In this document: one piece after another, positions 1 to 5,974 of the stretch
Layout of the letters: every line of letters begins with the position of its first letter
How positions within the stretch are numbered: position 1 is the first letter of the stretch
NCBI GenBank assembly: GCA_964457525.1
Contig: CAYWGS010000078.1
Coordinates: 1 to 5,974 of the forward strand
Direction: 5' to 3'
From: an uncultured Erysipelotrichaceae bacterium
GTDB lineage: Bacteria; Bacillota_I; Bacilli_A; Erysipelotrichales; Erysipelotrichaceae
Length of the DNA stretch: 5,974 nucleotides
Translations under genes and position numbers: made by a program
Notes under the pieces: model-generated
What the model was told of the DNA's origin: nothing
Databases searched by the model: none
What the model saw: only the letters and a program-made list of their open reading frames with translations

Positions 1-10
1 TTATAGAAAG

Positions 11-19
11 TGTAATATT
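11..19 (+). promoter_or_regulatory. Candidate extended -10 element (TG-T-AATATT) for the first transcription unit; any -35 would lie upstream of the window
   Basis: TG at 11-12 is followed one base later by AATATT (14-19), a 4/6 match to TATAAT. A start near 26 would leave a roughly 30-nt leader containing the RBS at 47-55. AT-rich context makes chance matches likely, and the window edge cuts off the -35 region. Confidence 0.2.
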
Positions 20-58
20 GATATTAGTTAACATTATTAAATAAAAAAAGGAGAGATT

Positions 59-691
59 ATGCGTTTATTCGATGAATTCTATCAAGCATTTGAAAATTTA
101 GAACAAGAAAAATGTATAGATTTAGTCAGTAATGCACTTAAGAATCAAGAGATTACAATCACTGATTTGTATGAGAATGTGTTACGAAAATCCATGTCGC
201 ATTTAACAGATGTAGAAACAGATGTTAATCATAAAATATGGAAAGAACATATCCAATCGGGTATTGTTCGCAGTGTGATTGAAATGGCATATCCGTATGT
301 GTTAAACAATCGTTCAAGTAAGTCAATTAAGAGAGCTGCTGTTATTTGCCCTGATGGGGAGCAACATGAACTTGGGGCTCGTATGGTAAGTGATTATATT
401 AGAATGATGGGTTTTGAAACATTTTTTGTTGGTCGTGATACACCACGAAAAGAATTGTATGATTTGATAAATACACTCAAATTGGATTTAATTGCGATCA
501 GTGTTACCAATTATTACAATATTTCAAAGGCGATTCAAATGGTTTCTTTTATTGAGTCTAACTTTCCATCTATTAAGTTAATTGTTGGTGGTAAAGGCTT
601 TGAAATGAATCCACATTTATTCGATGAAAATAGTGTTCATATTACACACAGTTATGAAGATATTAAGAAAGTGTTGGGAGAATTAGTATGA
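59..691 (+). CDS. Standalone cobalamin (B12)-binding domain protein: helical cap plus Rossmann-type B12-binding domain, CarH/AerR/corrinoid-protein-like module, no output domain
   Basis: 210-codon ORF with ATG at 59 preceded by AAAGGAGAG (47-55). The C-terminal half reads AVICPDGEQHELGARMVSDYIRMMGFETFFVG...LIAISVT...IKLIVGGKG. This gives E101-x-H103-x-x-G106, then 41 residues to S148-x-T150, then 26 residues to G177-G178 (hand counted). That fits the E/DxHxxG-(41)-SxV/T-(22-27)-GG base-off/His-on cobalamin signature known from MetH, corrinoid proteins and CarH. The N-terminal ~90 aa looks helical (B12-binding_2-like cap) and contains W61-K-E63-H64. There is no signal peptide, TM segment or DNA-binding domain. 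Confidence 0.85.
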   Translation: MRLFDEFYQAFENLEQEKCIDLVSNALKNQEITITDLYENVLRKSMSHLTDVETDVNHKIWKEHIQSGIVRSVIEMAYPYVLNNRSSKSIKRAAVICPDGEQHELGARMVSDYIRMMGFETFFVGRDTPRKELYDLINTLKLDLIAISVTNYYNISKAIQMVSFIESNFPSIKLIVGGKGFEMNPHLFDENSVHITHSYEDIKKVLGELV

Positions 692-1821
692 AATTTGCCT
701 TTTCAGTTGCGAAAAGATTTCTAGGATACAACAAAGGACAAACCCTAATGATTATGATTGGGATTGCGATTGGGGTATCTGTCCAAATATTTATTGGTTT
801 ATTAATTTCTGGTCTTCAAGAAAGTTTAATTGATAAGACAGTTGGTAGTACACCACATATTACAATTACTCAAGAAGAAGATTTAAGTTTTGGTGATTTT
901 GAAATTAAAAATGATGAATTTACAGCGGTTGCATATCAAGCGGAAGGTCCTGCATTTGCGATCACAGAAGATGATGATGCGTCTATTTTATTAAGAGGTC
1001 TCAGTGCTGAAGGTGATCAACTATATAAACTCAGTGAAAAAATAGTGGATGGTAAAATGCCTTCACAAAAGAATGATGTTATTGTGGGATTAGGGTTAAA
1101 GGAAAAATTGAATTTAAAGGTTAATGACACATTGACTTTAAGAACAATTAACAATCAAACTGTGGATGTTAAAGTGGTTGGAATTGTAGATTTAAAAGTT
1201 GATTCGATTAATAACTCATGGGTTTTATCGACACTACCGACTGCTCAAGGTTTATTTGAAATGGATGATAAAATTACATCCATTGCGATTCAAGTTAAAG
1301 ATGTCTTTACAGCAGATACATTAGCTGAAGAACTTAAAGCTGACATGCCAGTTACTGACTTGGAAGTTGTTAACTGGAAAGAACAGAATGAAGATTTATT
1401 AAGTGGTTTAAATGGTCAAAGTATTTCGAGTATTATGATTCAAGTGTTTGTATTGGTTTCTGTTGTGCTTGGTATTGCGAGTGTTCTTGCGATAACAGTT
1501 CTTCAAAAATCTAAACAAATTGGTATCTTAAAAGCGATGGGAATTCCTGATAATACTGCAAGTCAAATATTCTTATTCCAAGGATTAATCTTAGGATTCT
1601 ATGGTGCTATTCTTGGTGTACTCTTTGGATTAGGTTTAATACTAGCGTTTACGACATTTGCTCGTAATCCAGATGGATCTGCGTTGATCCCAATTAATTA
1701 TGATATTCCGTTTATTTTATTCTCAGGATCAGTAGCGATTCTATCTGCTTTAATCGCATCATTTATTCCTGCGGCTCGTTCTAAGAAGTTAAGCCCTATG
1801 GAGGTTATTCGAAATGGATAA
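688..1821 (+). CDS. ABC transporter permease, MacB/LolCE/FtsX family (type VII ABC fold), 4 TM with ~200-aa extracytoplasmic domain
   Basis: 377-codon ORF. ATG 688 overlaps the upstream stop (ATGA, 688-691), and GGGAG lies at 676-680. One N-terminal TM (LMIMIGIAIGVSVQIFIGLLISG) is followed by a hydrophilic domain at aa ~45-245 (MacB periplasmic-core-like). Three C-terminal TMs follow, with the FtsX-domain hallmark region NWKEQNEDLLSGLNGQSISSIMIQVFVLVSVVLGIASVLAITVLQKSKQIGILKAMGIPDNTASQIFLFQGLILG. Confidence 0.9.
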   Translation: MKFAFSVAKRFLGYNKGQTLMIMIGIAIGVSVQIFIGLLISGLQESLIDKTVGSTPHITITQEEDLSFGDFEIKNDEFTAVAYQAEGPAFAITEDDDASILLRGLSAEGDQLYKLSEKIVDGKMPSQKNDVIVGLGLKEKLNLKVNDTLTLRTINNQTVDVKVVGIVDLKVDSINNSWVLSTLPTAQGLFEMDDKITSIAIQVKDVFTADTLAEELKADMPVTDLEVVNWKEQNEDLLSGLNGQSISSIMIQVFVLVSVVLGIASVLAITVLQKSKQIGILKAMGIPDNTASQIFLFQGLILGFYGAILGVLFGLGLILAFTTFARNPDGSALIPINYDIPFILFSGSVAILSALIASFIPAARSKKLSPMEVIRNG

Positions 1822-2509
1822 TATTGTAGAACTAAAAGAAATAACAAAAATTTATGGTGATAAAGTTAAAACTCAAGTCCTTCATGGATTAAATCTATCA
1901 ATTGAAAAGGGAAGCTTTAACTCAATTATTGGACAATCTGGAAGTGGTAAGAGTACATTACTTAATATTTTAGGAACCTTAGATCGTCCCTCTGGTGGAG
2001 AAATCATTATCAATGGTGTTAACACAAAGGCGATGAGTTCGAATCAATTAGCTAAGTTAAGAAATGAAACATTAGGCTTTATCTTCCAATTTCACTTTTT
2101 ACTCCCTGAATTTACAGCATTAGAAAATGTATTAATGCCTTACCGTATCATGGGGAAAAAGATTGATGATAAAGTAATGGAACGTGCAAATGAGCTTATT
2201 GAACTTGTTGGTTTAACTAAGGTTAAAAACAATTTAGCGACTCAAATGTCTGGTGGTCAACAACAACGTACTGCAATTGCTCGTTCACTTATGAATAATC
2301 CGAGTATTATTCTTGCGGATGAACCTACAGGTAACTTAGATTCTGATACAACTGAACAAATCTATGATTTAATGCGTAAGATTAATAAGAAGTATAATAC
2401 GACATTCATTATTATCACACATGATCAACACGTGGCTGAAAAGACAGATCGTATCATTGAAATTAAAGATGGACGAATTGTAATGGATGTTAAGCGTGTA
2501 AATGAATAA
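1814..2509 (+). CDS. ABC transporter ATP-binding protein, MacB/LolD/FtsE-like subfamily
   Basis: 231-codon ORF. ATG 1814 overlaps the permease stop by 8 nt (ATGGATAA), and GGAGG lies at 1800-1804. Motifs present: Walker A GQSGSGKST (nt 1931-1957), Q-loop FQFHFLLPEFTALENV, signature MSGGQQQR, Walker B/D-loop [13 protein letters not shown]-loop ITHD. All catalytic motifs are intact. Confidence 0.95.
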   Translation: MDNIVELKEITKIYGDKVKTQVLHGLNLSIEKGSFNSIIGQSGSGKSTLLNILGTLDRPSGGEIIINGVNTKAMSSNQLAKLRNETLGFIFQFHFLLPEFTALENVLMPYRIMGKKIDDKVMERANELIELVGLTKVKNNLATQMSGGQQQRTAIARSLMNNPSIILADEPTGNLDSDTTEQIYDLMRKINKKYNTTFIIITHDQHVAEKTDRIIEIKDGRIVMDVKRVNE

Positions 2510-2537
2510 TATCTTCCATTTGGAAGATATTTTTTTA
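2509..2537 (+). terminator. Rho-independent terminator ending the first transcription unit
   Basis: Perfect inverted repeat ATATCTTCCA (2509-2518) / TGGAAGATAT (2521-2530). Realistically this forms a 9-bp stem with a 4-nt loop. A T-tract (2531-2536) follows immediately, and the structure starts at the last base of the stop codon of the ATPase gene. Confidence 0.8.
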
Positions 2538-2538
2538 T

Positions 2539-2592
2539 CTTAATCTAAGATTAATATTAACTGTGTTACACTAAGACTGTAATTAATCATAT
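2539..2592 (+). promoter_or_regulatory. Intergenic region expected to carry the promoter of the second unit; only weak sigma-A-like elements are visible
   Basis: The region lies between the terminator and the RBS AGGAGG (2593-2598). The best -10-like hexamers are TAATAT (2552-2557, 4/6) and TGTAAT (2578-2583, 5/6). Neither has a convincing -35 at 16-18 nt spacing. GTTACA (2565-2570) is -35-like, but its cognate -10 would overlap the RBS. Confidence 0.25.
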
Positions 2593-2605
2593 AGGAGGAA
2601 AGACG

Positions 2606-4033
2606 ATGAATTTTCTTAAACGAGCATTTCTAAGCTTATCAAGACGAAAAGGTAAATCACTCATACTTTTAGTTATTATTTTTATTTTGAGTAATGTTAT
2701 GGCAGGGTCCATTGCGATTGGACAAGCTTCTAATAATGTCGAAAAGACAATTAAATTACAATTAGGTGCAAATGCGAGTGTTGAACTTGATTGGGAGAAA
2801 ATGCAGGATTGGACTGAAGAACAATGGAACTCATTACAATATGTCACTCCAGAAATGGCAGATAAGATTGGTTCATTGTCTTACGTTAAGTATTATGACT
2901 ATAGTTCAGAGTCCTATATTAATTCTACAACTCTAACTCAATATGATCCTAATATGGTTGAGGTTCCTACGATGAGCTATTTCCCATTAAAGGGTGTTCA
3001 ATATGCGCCAATAATGGATATTGCGAATGGTAGTGCAACTTTAGTTGAAGGACGTACTTTTGATGAGAACGAGATAACAAATGCGGATTATGTTGCATTA
3101 ATCTCGGATAAAGTAGCCGAAATTAACAATGTGTTTGTTGGTGATGTCATTTATCTTCAAAATACATTCACAATTTGGAAAGATGACAATACAACAGAAG
3201 AAATCAAACGTGATATCGCTCTAGAAATTATCGGTATCTTTACACCTAAAGTTGAACAAAATGAAGAAAATAATGGTGGTTGGATTGATTATACGCCATT
3301 CAATCGTATCTATGTTCCTAATGGTGTAGTTCATGCGGAAAATCGTTGGATGAATGAACAGTATGCGGCTGCATATCCAGATTCAAATTTTCAAATTGAT
3401 CAAATTTATATTACTCCAACATTTGTTTTGAATAATCCAGAAGATGTTGAAAGTTTCAGAACTGAAGCAAAGGGTTTATTACCTGATTATTATAAAGTTA
3501 CTGTTTCTAGTGATGCATATGATTCAGTTGCTGGCCCAATTAAGTTTATTGGTTCTCTATCAAATATCATTCTTTATGTGGCAATTGGTGCTACGATCTT
3601 AATCCTAAGTTTAGTTGTAATTCTATTCTTGCGTGATCGTAAGCATGAGTTAGGTATCTATTTATCGCTCGGTGAAAGTAAAGCTAAAGTTGTTGGTCAA
3701 ATCTTGATTGAAGTTGTAACAATTGCTTTAATTGCGATTACATTATCGCTCTTGACGGGTAATTCAATTGCTGAATCTACGTCTCAATCAATGATTGATT
3801 TAAGAAATGAAATTGCTGGTACGAATGATGATAATGGAATTGTGTATCGCAATATGGGTTACTATCCAGGTAATGGTGTAACTGAAGATGATGTAATGGA
3901 AGCATATAAAATTGAATTTTCTTGGGACTATGTAATTATTCTTTATGGTGTAGGTCTTGGCACAGTGTTACTATCTAGTATCGCTCCAATGGTTTATATC
4001 TTAAGATTGAAACCTAAGAAGATCATGATGTAG
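2606..4033 (+). CDS. ABC transporter permease, MacB/FtsX family, with enlarged (~275 aa) extracytoplasmic domain and a long TM3-TM4 loop
   Basis: 475-codon ORF with AGGAGG at 2593-2598, 7 nt before the ATG. TM1 is aa ~18-39 (LILLVIIFILSNVMAGSIAIG) and the hydrophilic domain is aa ~40-315. TM2 is aa ~316-342 (SNIILYVAIGATILILSLVVILFL), followed by the FtsX-type cytoplasmic turn RDRKHELGIYLSLGESKAKV. TM3 is aa ~361-385, a ~55-aa hydrophilic loop spans aa 386-440, and TM4 is aa ~441-466. Confidence 0.9.
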   Translation: MNFLKRAFLSLSRRKGKSLILLVIIFILSNVMAGSIAIGQASNNVEKTIKLQLGANASVELDWEKMQDWTEEQWNSLQYVTPEMADKIGSLSYVKYYDYSSESYINSTTLTQYDPNMVEVPTMSYFPLKGVQYAPIMDIANGSATLVEGRTFDENEITNADYVALISDKVAEINNVFVGDVIYLQNTFTIWKDDNTTEEIKRDIALEIIGIFTPKVEQNEENNGGWIDYTPFNRIYVPNGVVHAENRWMNEQYAAAYPDSNFQIDQIYITPTFVLNNPEDVESFRTEAKGLLPDYYKVTVSSDAYDSVAGPIKFIGSLSNIILYVAIGATILILSLVVILFLRDRKHELGIYLSLGESKAKVVGQILIEVVTIALIAITLSLLTGNSIAESTSQSMIDLRNEIAGTNDDNGIVYRNMGYYPGNGVTEDDVMEAYKIEFSWDYVIILYGVGLGTVLLSSIAPMVYILRLKPKKIMM

Positions 4034-4044
4034 GAGGTAAACCC

Positions 4045-4719
4045 ATGGCAATTCTAAAAGCAAATAATTTAAAATACTATTATCAAGATGGTGAAAATAT
4101 TCGTACAATTTTGAAGGATTTAAGCATTGAGTTTGAAAAAGGGAAATTCTATACCATCTTAGGACCTTCTGGTAGTGGTAAGACTACGTTATTATCTCTG
4201 TTAGCAGCACTTGATGAACCTAAAGAAGGAAAGATCTTATATAACGATCAAGATATTAAAGCAATTGGTTATGAAAAATATCGTAGAAATATGGTAAGTA
4301 TCGTTTTCCAAAGCTACAATCTTGTTCCATATATGACAGCTGTTGAGAATGTAATGATTCCTATGGCAATTACTGAGAATGAAATTCCGAAGAATACTAA
4401 AGAAGTTGCATATAATTTATTAGATTATATTGGAATTACTAAATCTAAAGCAGATCGTATTGTAAATAAACTATCGGGTGGTGAGCAACAACGTGTTGCG
4501 ATTGCTCGTTCACTAGCAAGTAACGTTGATATTATTTTCGCAGATGAACCTACAGGTAACTTAGATTCTGAATTAGAAGATGAAATCATTGAGATTTTTA
4601 AGACCTTAGCACATGAGCATAACAAATGTATTATTATGGTTACTCACTCTAAGGAAATTGCTGATAAGTCTGATGTTTCATATCAGTTGAAAAAAGGAGT
4701 GTTATTGCAAAATGAGTGA
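4045..4719 (+). CDS. ABC transporter ATP-binding protein, MacB/LolD/FtsE-like subfamily (paralog of 1814-2509)
   Basis: 224-codon ORF. AGGAGG (4032-4037) overlaps the permease stop codon. Motifs present: Walker [11 protein letters not shown]-loop [16 protein letters not shown], signature LSGGEQQR, Walker B/D-loop [13 protein letters not shown]-loop VTHS. Confidence 0.95.
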
Positions 4720-5974
4720 CTTCTTAAATAAGTTTTCTAAAAAAGATTACAAAAGTGAATCTCAAGAGAAACCAAAATCGATCGAAACGCCAAAAGAAGA
4801 AGTGAAGACAGTTGAATCAAAACCTGTCGAAACTGTAAAACCAACTCCTGTTGTTTCTACTTCACGTCACGAGGAAGAAGTACATATTGATCCTAGCTAT
4901 CGTAGGAACCAAAGAAATAAGATAATTATTGGTGCTGTTGCGATTGTCGCATTGCTTGCCTTATCATTTGGAGTTTACTACTTGCTTAATCAAGTTCAAA
5001 TTCCTGATTATGTAAATAAACCATTATCAGAATTAAAAACATGGGCATCTAGAAATAATATTGCTTTAGAAACAGAGTATCAATTCAATTTAGAAGTAAA
5101 TAAAGACTATATTATTGATTTAAATCCTGTCGCGAACTCAAATATTCAGAAGGGTTCTATCCTAAAAGTTATTGTTAGTGATGGTGCGGACCCTGATGAA
5201 CAGATTCAAGTTCCTGATTTTACCGGTAATACTTATTATCAAATTCAAGAATGGTTAAGTACGAACAAGATAAATAATTTGCGTATTACTTACGAAAACA
5301 ATGAAGATATTCCAGTGAATGAATTTGTTCGTATCGTATTCAATGATAAGACGATTACAAGTGATTCTTATACACGTAAAGATTATGGCTTAATCTATTT
5401 GTCTAATGGTCCTGTTGTATATGAAAAGAATATTAAAGTACCAAATTGGACAACTGCTGCGACAAGTGTAGTAAGTGCTCAAGCTTGGGGATTAGAACAA
5501 GATGTAGAGGTAATTGTAAATTTAGTTAATTCTACATCAGTACCTAAAGATATTATTATCTCTCAAAGTATTGCTCCAGATACAATGATTGCGAAGAAGA
5601 GTAAGATTACGATTACTGTTTCTCTTGGTCAAATTGTCACAGTTCCTGATTTCTCTAAGATGTCGAAAGAAGAAGCTGAAAACACATCCTTAAGTAATGC
5701 GGTTGTTAAGTATGTTGAAATGTATCAACCAAAAACAGGTGCTACTTATGGCTCATATATCTGGCAAGATGTAAAAGCTGGAACAAATATCGATCAAAGT
5801 AGTGCAACTAAATTGGTTATTACAGTCTATTACTCATTGGGTCAACCATATTTGAGTTCAATGGTAGGTCATTCTGAAGCTGAAATTCCAACATTTATAT
5901 ATGATCAAAATCTAAAGAGTGCAAATTTTACTTTTGAAGTACAAGCTTCAACCATTAATGAGGCTCCTAAAGGT
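4712..5974 (+). CDS. Bitopic membrane protein with tandem extracellular PASTA-like domains (3' end beyond window); no kinase or transpeptidase domain upstream of the repeats
   Basis: This ORF is not in the supplied track because it has no stop inside the window. Hand translation from ATG 4712 gives 421 sense codons with no stop up to 5974. The frame opens after TGA at 4688-4690, and 4712 is the first start codon in it. AAGGAG lies at 4694-4699, and the ATG overlaps the ATPase stop by 8 nt (ATGAGTGA). The protein starts [73 protein letters not shown] helix IIIGAVAIVALLALSFGVYYLL follows, then repeats of ~65-70 aa, each opening with (I/V)-x-(I/V)-P-(D/N)-(Y/F/W) and closing with hydrophobic-x-V-S-x-G. 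Confidence 0.85.
   Translation, partial: MSDFLNKFSKKDYKSESQEKPKSIETPKEEVKTVESKPVETVKPTPVVSTSRHEEEVHIDPSYRRNQRNKIIIGAVAIVALLALSFGVYYLLNQVQIPDYVNKPLSELKTWASRNNIALETEYQFNLEVNKDYIIDLNPVANSNIQKGSILKVIVSDGADPDEQIQVPDFTGNTYYQIQEWLSTNKINNLRITYENNEDIPVNEFVRIVFNDKTITSDSYTRKDYGLIYLSNGPVVYEKNIKVPNWTTAATSVVSAQAWGLEQDVEVIVNLVNSTSVPKDIIISQSIAPDTMIAKKSKITITVSLGQIVTVPDFSKMSKEEAENTSLSNAVVKYVEMYQPKTGATYGSYIWQDVKAGTNIDQSSATKLVITVYYSLGQPYLSSMVGHSEAEIPTFIYDQNLKSANFTFEVQASTINEAPKG
4994..5974 (+). repeat. Tandem array of at least 5 PASTA-like protein modules (protein-level repeats, diverged at DNA level)
   Basis: Module boundaries from hand translation are as follows. Module 1, aa 95-157 (nt 4994-5182): VQIPDY...IIDLNPVANSNIQKGSILKVIVSDG. 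Module 2, aa 165-233 (5204-5410): IQVPDF...LIYLSNG. Module 3, aa 241-306 (5432-5629): IKVPNW...IIISQSIAPDTMIAKKSKITITVSLG. Module 4, aa 308-376 (5633-5839): IVTVPDF...KLVITVYYSLG. Module 5, aa 379-421 (5846-5974) is truncated by the window. The pattern v-x-vPd-x-G...vi-x-Q-x-P-x-x-G...v-x-l-x-vS-x-G is the PASTA consensus. The recurring TTCCTGATT (VPD/IPD) at 4997, 5210 and 5642 marks module starts at DNA level. Confidence 0.7.

Follow-up and report, generated by a model that had tools for sequence, protein, structure and literature searches.

A conserved gene trio encoding a MacB-fold ABC transporter and a kinase-less PASTA protein, a proposed three-component envelope module

Three consecutive genes in a 5,974-nt stretch of DNA from an uncultured Erysipelotrichaceae bacterium (assembly GCA_964457525.1, contig CAYWGS010000078.1, positions 1 to 5,974 of the forward strand; hereafter the window) encode an ABC transporter permease, its ATPase and a membrane-anchored PASTA protein that carries no kinase domain. 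This trio was found in well over 100 bacterial loci in two phyla, and the genes flanking it are otherwise unrelated from locus to locus. The permease and ATPase constitute a type VII (MacB-superfamily) ABC transporter. Judged by gene order and sequence comparison, the linkage of the trio is not due to chance, and a dedicated partnership of the PASTA protein with the ABC pair is strongly supported. On balance we lean towards the view that the three genes encode a dedicated three-component type VII ABC machine with a likely accessory role in envelope stress or antimicrobial defence; our confidence is higher in the partnership, and modest in the stress or defence role.

Type VII ABC transporters act mechanically on partners outside the membrane, and few types of partner are known (hydrolase activators, LolA, MacA and TesA). 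PASTA arrays are the main known Gram-positive sensors of the status of wall precursors, but their role is understood only where they feed signals to a kinase or form part of penicillin-binding proteins (PBPs). A PASTA-ABC operon would bring the two fields together. That a type VII ABC transporter works with a partner of its own is a known arrangement; the class of partner, a PASTA protein, would be new. The function of most Gram-positive type VII members is not known (PMC11466899, PMC12646458). Our literature searches on PASTA with FtsX, MacB or ABC transporters, or on kinase-less PASTA proteins, found no description of the module, and the word PASTA is absent from a MacB-family review, a 2025 paper on YbbAP-TesA and a survey of Bacillus subtilis ABC transporters. 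In databases the proteins are named "PASTA domain-containing protein", "ABC transporter permease" or, wrongly, "serine/threonine protein kinase".

Linkage of the three genes across genomes

A protein search started from the PASTA protein returned kinase-less PASTA proteins, 420-680 aa long, in about 105 clusters; the sole kinase-containing match was the weakest (E 7.6e-5). Scanning genomes from the PASTA protein, with one genome per species, gave 80 loci, and 77 of these, which is every locus with enough upstream DNA, carry the genes in the order permease-ATPase-PASTA on the same strand. Of the remaining three, two run into contig ends and one (L038) is considered below. The reverse test, a metagenome scan from the permease, gave 80 loci of which 59 were informative; an ATPase gene and a PASTA gene lie downstream of the permease in 51 of the 59, and the other eight comprise three loci with two permease genes and an ATPase gene without a PASTA gene, four orphan permeases and one rearranged tandem. 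The preliminary description of this DNA had asked whether the linkage is conserved in related genomes, and from both starting points it is.

The closest named relatives of the window are uncultured Erysipelotrichaceae. Beyond that family the trio occurs in Enterococcus (Enterococcaceae), Vagococcus, Brochothrix (Listeriaceae), Granulicatella, Isobaculum and Carnobacteriaceae, and also in many alkaliphilic or halophilic Bacillaceae, Tissierellia, Lachnospiraceae, Peptococcaceae, Culicoidibacterales and Coriobacteriales; judged from named matches only, it was found under no model-organism name. Across these loci the junctions are tight. Direct reading of the window places an 11-nt gap between permease and ATPase genes (4034-4044) and an 8-nt overlap, ATGAGTGA, between ATPase and PASTA genes (4712-4719), which confirms the open reading frames (ORFs), gap and overlap as first described, and the exact 8-nt overlap is kept in 67 of 71 triads. 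This overlap is probably a translational-coupling junction.

The three proteins also diverge together, their pairwise distance matrices correlating with r of 0.80-0.86. Moreover, in genomes with two copies of the module (Enterococcus sp. 5H, E. rivorum, E. innesii and E. entomosocium) the permease, ATPase and PASTA protein of each copy co-cluster in the same sub-lineage, and the unit therefore appears to duplicate or transfer whole. In a plasmid search, ordinary mobile plasmids lacked the module, which turned up on E. raffinosus megaplasmids alone. One megaplasmid copy is intact (NZ_CP072889.1); another has decayed (L167; NZ_CP081847.1, 957570-959100), its PASTA gene being split into two annotated fragments and adjoining a response-regulator fragment between two IS110 transposase genes.

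The family extends further than these loci. An exhaustive profile search for the PASTA protein (E up to 1e-30) returned 1,105 representatives of 50% identity clusters, the best 150 of which all have E values below about 1e-104, many of them aligned end to end. Among 137 new representatives, 57 begin with xDFLxxF and many others with the related xSFL[DE]. We examined six divergent members (L168-L175; 665-1019 aa, N-terminal xSFL[DE], up to nine Pfam PASTA stretches), and a permease-ATPase pair precedes the PASTA gene in all six, the upstream product at L173 being cut and without a Pfam call. Among the best profile matches are also proteins of 1,300-3,300 aa with 10-29 PASTA-like stretches (P0228, P0229, P0230, P0234, P0270 and others).

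Two variant arrangements were seen on the permease side. At L130, L133 and L137, two tandem permease genes are followed by the ATPase and PASTA genes, which suggests a heterodimeric variant of the permease, as in LolC/LolE. The three loci with two permeases and an ATPase without a PASTA gene (L155, L160 and L161) form a sister group.

Protein architecture and locus layout

The preliminary description of a type VII ABC pair followed by a PASTA-array protein was borne out by Pfam, AlphaFold2 and Foldseek. The 475-aa permease matches MacB_PCD (E 4.5e-8; residues 36-288 against a 207-position profile) and FtsX (E 5.2e-8) in Pfam. Its AlphaFold2 model (pLDDT 77.5) has four long transmembrane (TM) helices and an alpha/beta ectodomain at about residues 54-300, the parts following one another as N-terminal amphipathic helix, TM1, ectodomain, TM2, coupling loop, TM3, TM4 and tail. 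Between TM2 and TM3 lies an invariant coupling loop, LFLRDRKHELGIYLSLGE, the C-terminal tail RL(K/N)PKKIMM is likewise invariant, and the outside loop joining TM3 to TM4 (about 38 aa) is disordered in the model. The ectodomain, between TM1 and TM2, measures about 245-255 aa; to call it unusually large, as was first done, overstates a moderately large size, about a quarter above the roughly 200 aa of a neighbouring paralogue (688-1821). The permease presumably dimerises.

A Foldseek search of the Protein Data Bank (PDB) with the permease model returned Spr0694-0695 (5xu1, E 3.6e-13), MacB (5gko, E 3.8e-13) and LolCDE (9rld, E 9.7e-13), with YbbAP, HrtBA and YknZ also among the closest structural relatives, while the highest TM-score over the query belonged to B. 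subtilis YtrEF (9o9x, TMq 0.50). A literature search on YtrEF found no functional paper. BceAB structures match more weakly (E 1e-6 to 1e-5), and a BceAB-type assignment was rejected, the permease being a 475-aa protein with four TM helices and not a single ten-TM chain. At the level of sequence, likeness to any solved structure is marginal (profile E about 1e-3). In NCBIfam the permease reaches only 27 bits, on one model (ADOP), and LolCDE was set aside as an identity because the permease matches no LolCE model.

The 224-aa ATPase (Pfam ABC_tran, E 1.7e-33) has all its motifs intact in translation: Walker A GPSGSGKT, signature LSGGEQQR, Q-loop, Walker B with catalytic glutamate, and H-loop. 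Of the three proteins it varies least: its mean pairwise identity is 72%, that of the permease 42% and that of the PASTA protein 41%. Its best NCBIfam match, TIGR03608 (lactococcin 972-type ABC), reaches 188.4 bits, below the cut-off of 254.85, and membership of that class was rejected.

The third protein matches Pfam PASTA in three stretches (E 3.9e-21); no Pkinase match was found in Pfam, only PASTA matches. We considered a PASTA Ser/Thr kinase of the Stk1/PknB type and rejected it for want of that domain, and NF033483 reaches only 101.6 bits against a cut-off of 450, aligning over profile positions 282-474 alone, that is, over the TM and PASTA part; the layout of a TM helix and tandem PASTA modules does fit. 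The AlphaFold2 model (pLDDT 85, from a 36-sequence alignment) places a short N-terminal helix before disordered residues 14-57, then the single TM helix and five PASTA-like modules. Foldseek matches it to the PrkC ectodomain (3py9, E 3.6e-13), PknB (2kui, E 1.6e-9) and the PASTA domains of PBP2x/PBP1. The protein has neither lipobox nor cleavable signal and carries an ordinary N-in TM anchor. Its cytoplasmic part of about 60 residues consists of a conserved N-terminal peptide, a disordered linker that is variable in the family alignment, and a juxtamembrane DPxY motif.

In all three proteins the best-conserved regions are cytoplasmic; variation is found in the ectodomains and in how many PASTA modules there are. 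Expressed as the mean frequency of the commonest residue, regional conservation is 0.93 in the permease C-tail, 0.89 in the TM2-TM3 coupling loop, 0.80 in the ATPase, 0.78 in the PASTA N-terminal motif and 0.71 in the juxtamembrane motif, and falls to 0.52-0.63 in the PASTA modules, 0.47 in the permease ectodomain and 0.33 in the TM3-TM4 outside loop. From this pattern we infer that at least part of the contact between PASTA protein and transporter is on the cytoplasmic and membrane side, and the ectodomains may have adapted to lineage-specific walls or ligands.

The N-terminal peptide starts in the gene overlap, where the ATPase stop codon partly dictates Ser2 and Asp3 (codon 2 is AGT in 69 of 72 sequences). 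The residues beyond are another matter: Phe4, Leu5, Phe8 and Tyr13 are kept though their codons vary, Leu5 being invariant with six different codons in use, and selection therefore appears to act on the protein. To look for the peptide next to other ectodomains we searched with a profile of the cytoplasmic tail and TM segment alone, which retrieved a single fragment and was otherwise uninformative. The D-F-L-x-K core may bear a faint likeness to the FtsZ C-terminal peptide.

Every ORF of the window is on the + strand, and the GC content is about 33% (Table 1). A 40-kb metagenomic contig (L001) carries the same genes with the PASTA gene complete at 451 aa. On it, the hairpin that precedes the trio lies at 9903-9926 (window coordinate + 7395) and a second terminator-like hairpin stands directly 3' of the PASTA gene. 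The two bracket exactly the permease, ATPase and PASTA genes, which therefore look like a unit of their own, and we propose that they form one transcription unit. A sigma-70 scan of the 2532-2605 leader gave no enrichment and no clear promoter, and Rfam found no RNA elements in the window.

Table 1. Features of the window, with positions numbered from its first nucleotide
Feature	Position	Strand	Basis or remark
B12-binding-domain protein, 210 aa (B12-binding_2 + B12-binding)	59-691	+	no DNA-binding or enzyme domain
LolCE-like MacB_PCD/FtsX permease	688-1821	+	4-nt overlap with B12-binding gene
LolD-like ATPase	1814-2509	+	8-nt overlap with LolCE-like permease gene
Terminator-like hairpin AATATCTTCC-ATTT-GGAAGATATT, then T run	2508-2531	+	closes upstream ABC operon, separating the three-gene unit
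Leader and putative promoter region	2532-2605	+	sequence; conserved in close relatives
Direct repeat CTTAATC-N4-ATTAATA, 11-nt period	2539-2556	+	within leader
Ribosome-binding site AGGAGGA	2593-2599	+	within leader
MacB-fold type VII ABC permease, 475 aa	2606-4033	+	ORF, Pfam, AlphaFold2, Foldseek
ABC ATPase, 224 aa	4045-4719	+	ORF, Pfam, intact catalytic motifs
Overlap ATGAGTGA	4712-4719	+	PASTA start codon, with ATPase TGA stop inside PASTA codons 2-3 (Ser-Asp)
Kinase-less bitopic PASTA protein, residues 1-421 of 451	4712-5974	+	gene extends 93 nt past window end
Conserved cytoplasmic N-terminal peptide, family consensus M-S-D-F-L-S-[NK]-F-x-x-[DE]-N-Y	4712-4750	+	family alignment
Juxtamembrane DPxY motif, residues 60-63, conserved	before TM helix	+	family alignment
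Single TM helix, residues 63-92	4898-4987	+	AlphaFold2, alignment
PASTA-like modules 1-4, residues 94-157, 165-232, 243-305, 309-376	within 4991-5974	+	AlphaFold2, Foldseek
PASTA-like module 5, residues 380-445, cut at 421 by window end	to 5974	+	AlphaFold2

Upstream of the trio lies a second ABC unit (59-2509), which has terminator-like hairpins on both sides and in which a cobalamin-binding protein is coupled with a type VII ABC pair, unusual in itself. Its permease, the paralogue mentioned above, scores 134.7 bits on TIGR02212 (LolC/LolE), where the cut-off is 362. The three genes of this unit stay together in the close relatives L008, L009, L087 and L091 at varying distance from the PASTA module, and we rejected the unit as part of that module since it is kept only in close relatives and with variable spacing. 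About 1.2 kb downstream of the PASTA gene, contig L001 carries an ORF for PBECR4, a phage Barnase-EndoU-ColicinE5/D-RelE-like nuclease (14653-15276), with a gene for an NAD(P)H-binding protein in between; the PBECR4 ORF is probably unrelated to the module.

A proposed mechanism and its alternatives

We propose that the permease and the ATPase, each as a dimer, make up a mechanotransmission engine of MacB fold, and that the PASTA protein, produced in step with the ATPase through the stop/start overlap, would be its third subunit. Without a kinase domain the PASTA protein would have to give its output through a partner, most plausibly the ABC transporter, on which it may dock in two ways: by its TM and juxtamembrane segment, and by the tethered N-terminal peptide on the cytoplasmic face. 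A rod of five to nine or more PASTA modules would reach into the wall and, by analogy with the ectodomains of PASTA kinases, bind peptidoglycan precursors or fragments. ATP-driven ectodomain movements are typical of MacB-type transporters (PMC5985334), and the status of the wall or of lipid II could be coupled to such movements in the permease, or the reverse. The machine may thereby detect or remove some ligand of lipid II-cycle intermediates, in analogy to MacB, YknYZ, Spr0694-0695 and BceAB.

A defence role is favoured because the module is patchily distributed, sits in variable neighbourhoods, occasionally has a second copy, is frequently accompanied by a two-component system (TCS) and occasionally by an extra FtsX/ABC pair. 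We also count for it the closest structural relatives (Spr0694-0695, YknZ, MacB and BceAB). A place in the housekeeping division machinery is less likely. The cytoplasmic peptide and the recurrent TCS, neither of which figured in the preliminary description, suggest coupling through the cytoplasmic face, and stress sensing or defence over housekeeping remodelling. That description had also presented the PASTA protein as a dedicated and new type of partner, a claim upheld by linkage, overlap and co-divergence across families; contact and function are what we infer. In enterococci such as E. casseliflavus, E. gallinarum and E. raffinosus the module may also contribute, so far unrecognised, to the tolerance of cell-wall antibiotics or antimicrobial peptides.

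Several observations weigh against this account. One PASTA family gene, that of L038 (1-1698, N-terminus MNEFLSQF), is the only one without an ATPase gene in the available upstream sequence, here 360 nt to the contig end. Conversely, there are permease relatives without a PASTA gene, namely the sister group of L155, L160 and L161 and the orphans L129, L131, L132 and L164; the four orphans come from the same sample as L038, which suggests a scrambled arrangement in that lineage. Correlated distances are in part expected of any genes that share a genome history. Ten extended family members, examined for PASTA arrays fused to FtsX or ABC domains, had only extra PASTA modules or linkers. As to regulation, 107 of 125 core triads have no adjacent TCS, and on the window's contig none was found within 10 kb. 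Finally, ligand binding by these PASTA modules is assumed by analogy.

A more specific version of the mechanism, which we put forward tentatively, is kinase-independent PASTA signalling. Binding of lipid II or muropeptides would be relayed through the TM helix and the MSDFLS[NK]F peptide to the ATPase or coupling elements and would gate mechanical work; in reverse, the motor could pull on wall-bound PASTA modules, and an adjacent TCS, where present, would receive the report of activity. If true, this route would be both a new class of type VII partner and a new mode of output for PASTA sensors, widespread in Bacillota and present in Coriobacteriia. The module, which occurs in cultivable Enterococcus, Vagococcus, Brochothrix and alkaliphilic Bacillaceae, would offer a simple and genetically tractable system for PASTA sensing and motor gating.

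The first suggestion made for this locus was FtsEX-like wall remodelling. On this reading a peptidoglycan hydrolase or synthase would be under mechanical control of the transporter as the cell grows or divides, and the PASTA array would either bring the transporter to nascent peptidoglycan or be the part that is actuated. In kinases and PBPs, PASTA domains localise to wall-synthesis sites, and the trio is tightly linked, its permease is a type VII ABC protein with an ectodomain, and the best TM-score over the query is that of YtrEF. At the level of the superfamily the comparison holds. It goes no further: the permease matches none of the FtsX models (NF038347, NF038346 and TIGR00439), the ATPase falls short on the FtsE model (TIGR02673; 169.5 bits, cut-off 264.85), and the fold is nearest MacB, Spr0694-0695, LolCDE and YtrEF. 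Among the 80 loci, the conserved neighbours include no gene for a hydrolase, adaptor, coiled-coil activator or PBP, and an accessory module, sometimes duplicated and with variable neighbourhoods, fits poorly with housekeeping division. We regard this suggestion as unlikely.

Improbable too, in our judgement, is a chiefly sensory complex in which transporter and PASTA protein, with PASTA as the ligand antenna, feed signals to an OmpR-type response regulator and histidine kinase and resistance is provided by other genes, much as BceAB reports its activity to BceS. It has points in its favour. The commonest cluster of neighbours beyond the trio is a response regulator (20 of 80 loci), and an OmpR-type response regulator and histidine kinase adjoin 18 of 125 core triads and four of the six distant ones, laid out as regulator-kinase-triad, triad-regulator-kinase, or regulator-kinase-(extra FtsX/ABC pair)-triad. 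The last of these layouts, with a second FtsX/ABC pair between TCS and triad, is found in several Enterococcus loci, and 11-nt-period direct repeats, typical of OmpR-family sites, occur upstream in the window's clade and at L077 and L018. On the other hand, most triads, the window's included, have no nearby TCS, and the repeat motif TTAAY-N6-TTAAY, present in only 2 of 74 upstream regions, was rejected as a family-wide element. The adjacent histidine kinases, moreover, are ordinary proteins of 325-565 aa that match no curated family and are not of the short, intramembrane-sensing BceS type.

The clusters with two ABC systems and the repeats deserve a brief description. In several Enterococcus species and one Culicoidibacterales metagenome-assembled genome, the response regulator, histidine kinase, a divergent FtsX-type permease and an ATPase precede the triad; two such seven-gene clusters (L018, 1951-7321; L077, 1803-7238) are reminiscent of paired sensing and detoxifying transporters. 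At L077 the repeat is CTTAACAGTAG-CTTAACAGTAA (about 5600-5625) and at L018 it is AGTTAACATTC-AGTTAACAATT (3696-3718, before the extra ABC pair). Like the window's repeat, which is conserved in its close relatives, they look like candidate OmpR-family response-regulator sites.

Two further explanations are very improbable. The PASTA protein might be cargo that the ABC pair extracts, inserts or positions (or its lipid-bound ligand might be), as LolCDE does with lipoproteins. The fold of the permease does resemble LolCDE and strict co-occurrence would be expected of a dedicated cargo too, but the ordinary TM anchor and the LolCE-negative, barely ADOP-positive permease described above speak against it, and the conserved cytoplasmic peptide fits a stable partner better. 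Mere co-transcription of an independent PASTA protein (for example a decoy or scaffold for PASTA-kinase signalling or PBPs) with an ordinary efflux pump gains something from the existence of PASTA-less pump relatives, but it sits badly with an order, strand and 8-nt overlap that two phyla have kept amid wholly different flanking genes, with a unit that duplicates together, and with distant members of seven to nine PASTA modules that share the arrangement.

Comparison with known systems

The proposed machine is closest in build to the Gram-positive MacB-type transporters. Spr0694-0695 (5xu1), YknYZ (5f9q) and YtrEF (9o9x) have the same four-TM FtsX domain, a MacB_PCD ectodomain and, as a separate protein, a nucleotide-binding domain, which here is the 224-aa ATPase. 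Several such transporters are tied to antimicrobial-peptide resistance or are of unknown function (PMC11466899, PMC5985334). The window differs from them in having the permease gene before the ATPase gene and, as third gene, one for a PASTA protein in place of a membrane-fusion adaptor (Spr0693, YknX); its permease is further set apart by the invariant coupling loop and C-tail and by a TM3-TM4 outside loop of greater length. A tripartite pump of the MacAB or YknXYZ kind was rejected, a gene for an HlyD-family adaptor being absent from the window, the contig and the conserved neighbours. The PASTA protein nonetheless resembles MacA in being single-pass, encoded with a MacB-type transporter, and, by its large extracytoplasmic part, carrying the machine outward from the membrane (PMC5985334), whereas it lacks the HlyD/membrane-fusion fold. 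Gram-positive hosts have no outer membrane duct, and no PASTA rod is known to form a channel.

FtsEX and the PASTA-ABC module share the plan of a type VII ABC engine with a dedicated partner. The module departs from FtsEX in that its PASTA partner is membrane-anchored and without a coiled coil or hydrolase-activating domain, and in being accessory and patchily distributed. The conserved cytoplasmic peptide is not known from FtsEX partners. Current models have FtsEX do conformational work on a dedicated partner beyond the membrane (PcsB, CwlO, EnvC or RipC), which is encoded or acts with it (PMC7668044, PMC11491553).

BceAB transporters are type VII-related, are directed at lipid II-cycle targets and often stand beside an OmpR-type TCS (PMC7038271), and a TCS likewise adjoins part of the PASTA-ABC family. 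It is absent, however, from most PASTA-ABC loci, and Bce systems have no counterpart of the PASTA subunit. The YclHI-YclJK genes of B. subtilis presumably form a similar cluster of permease, ATPase and TCS without PASTA.

Finally, the PASTA protein is built like PrkC, PknB, StkP and IreK, with its N-terminus inside, one TM helix and a linear PASTA array, and the PASTA ectodomains of PrkC and PknB bind muropeptides, peptidoglycan fragments or lipid II (PMC5786024, PMC6428115). Both by fold and by profile, the PASTA protein matches the ectodomains of these kinases best. In contrast to them, it has in place of a kinase domain a cytoplasmic part of some 60 residues with a 13-residue conserved peptide.

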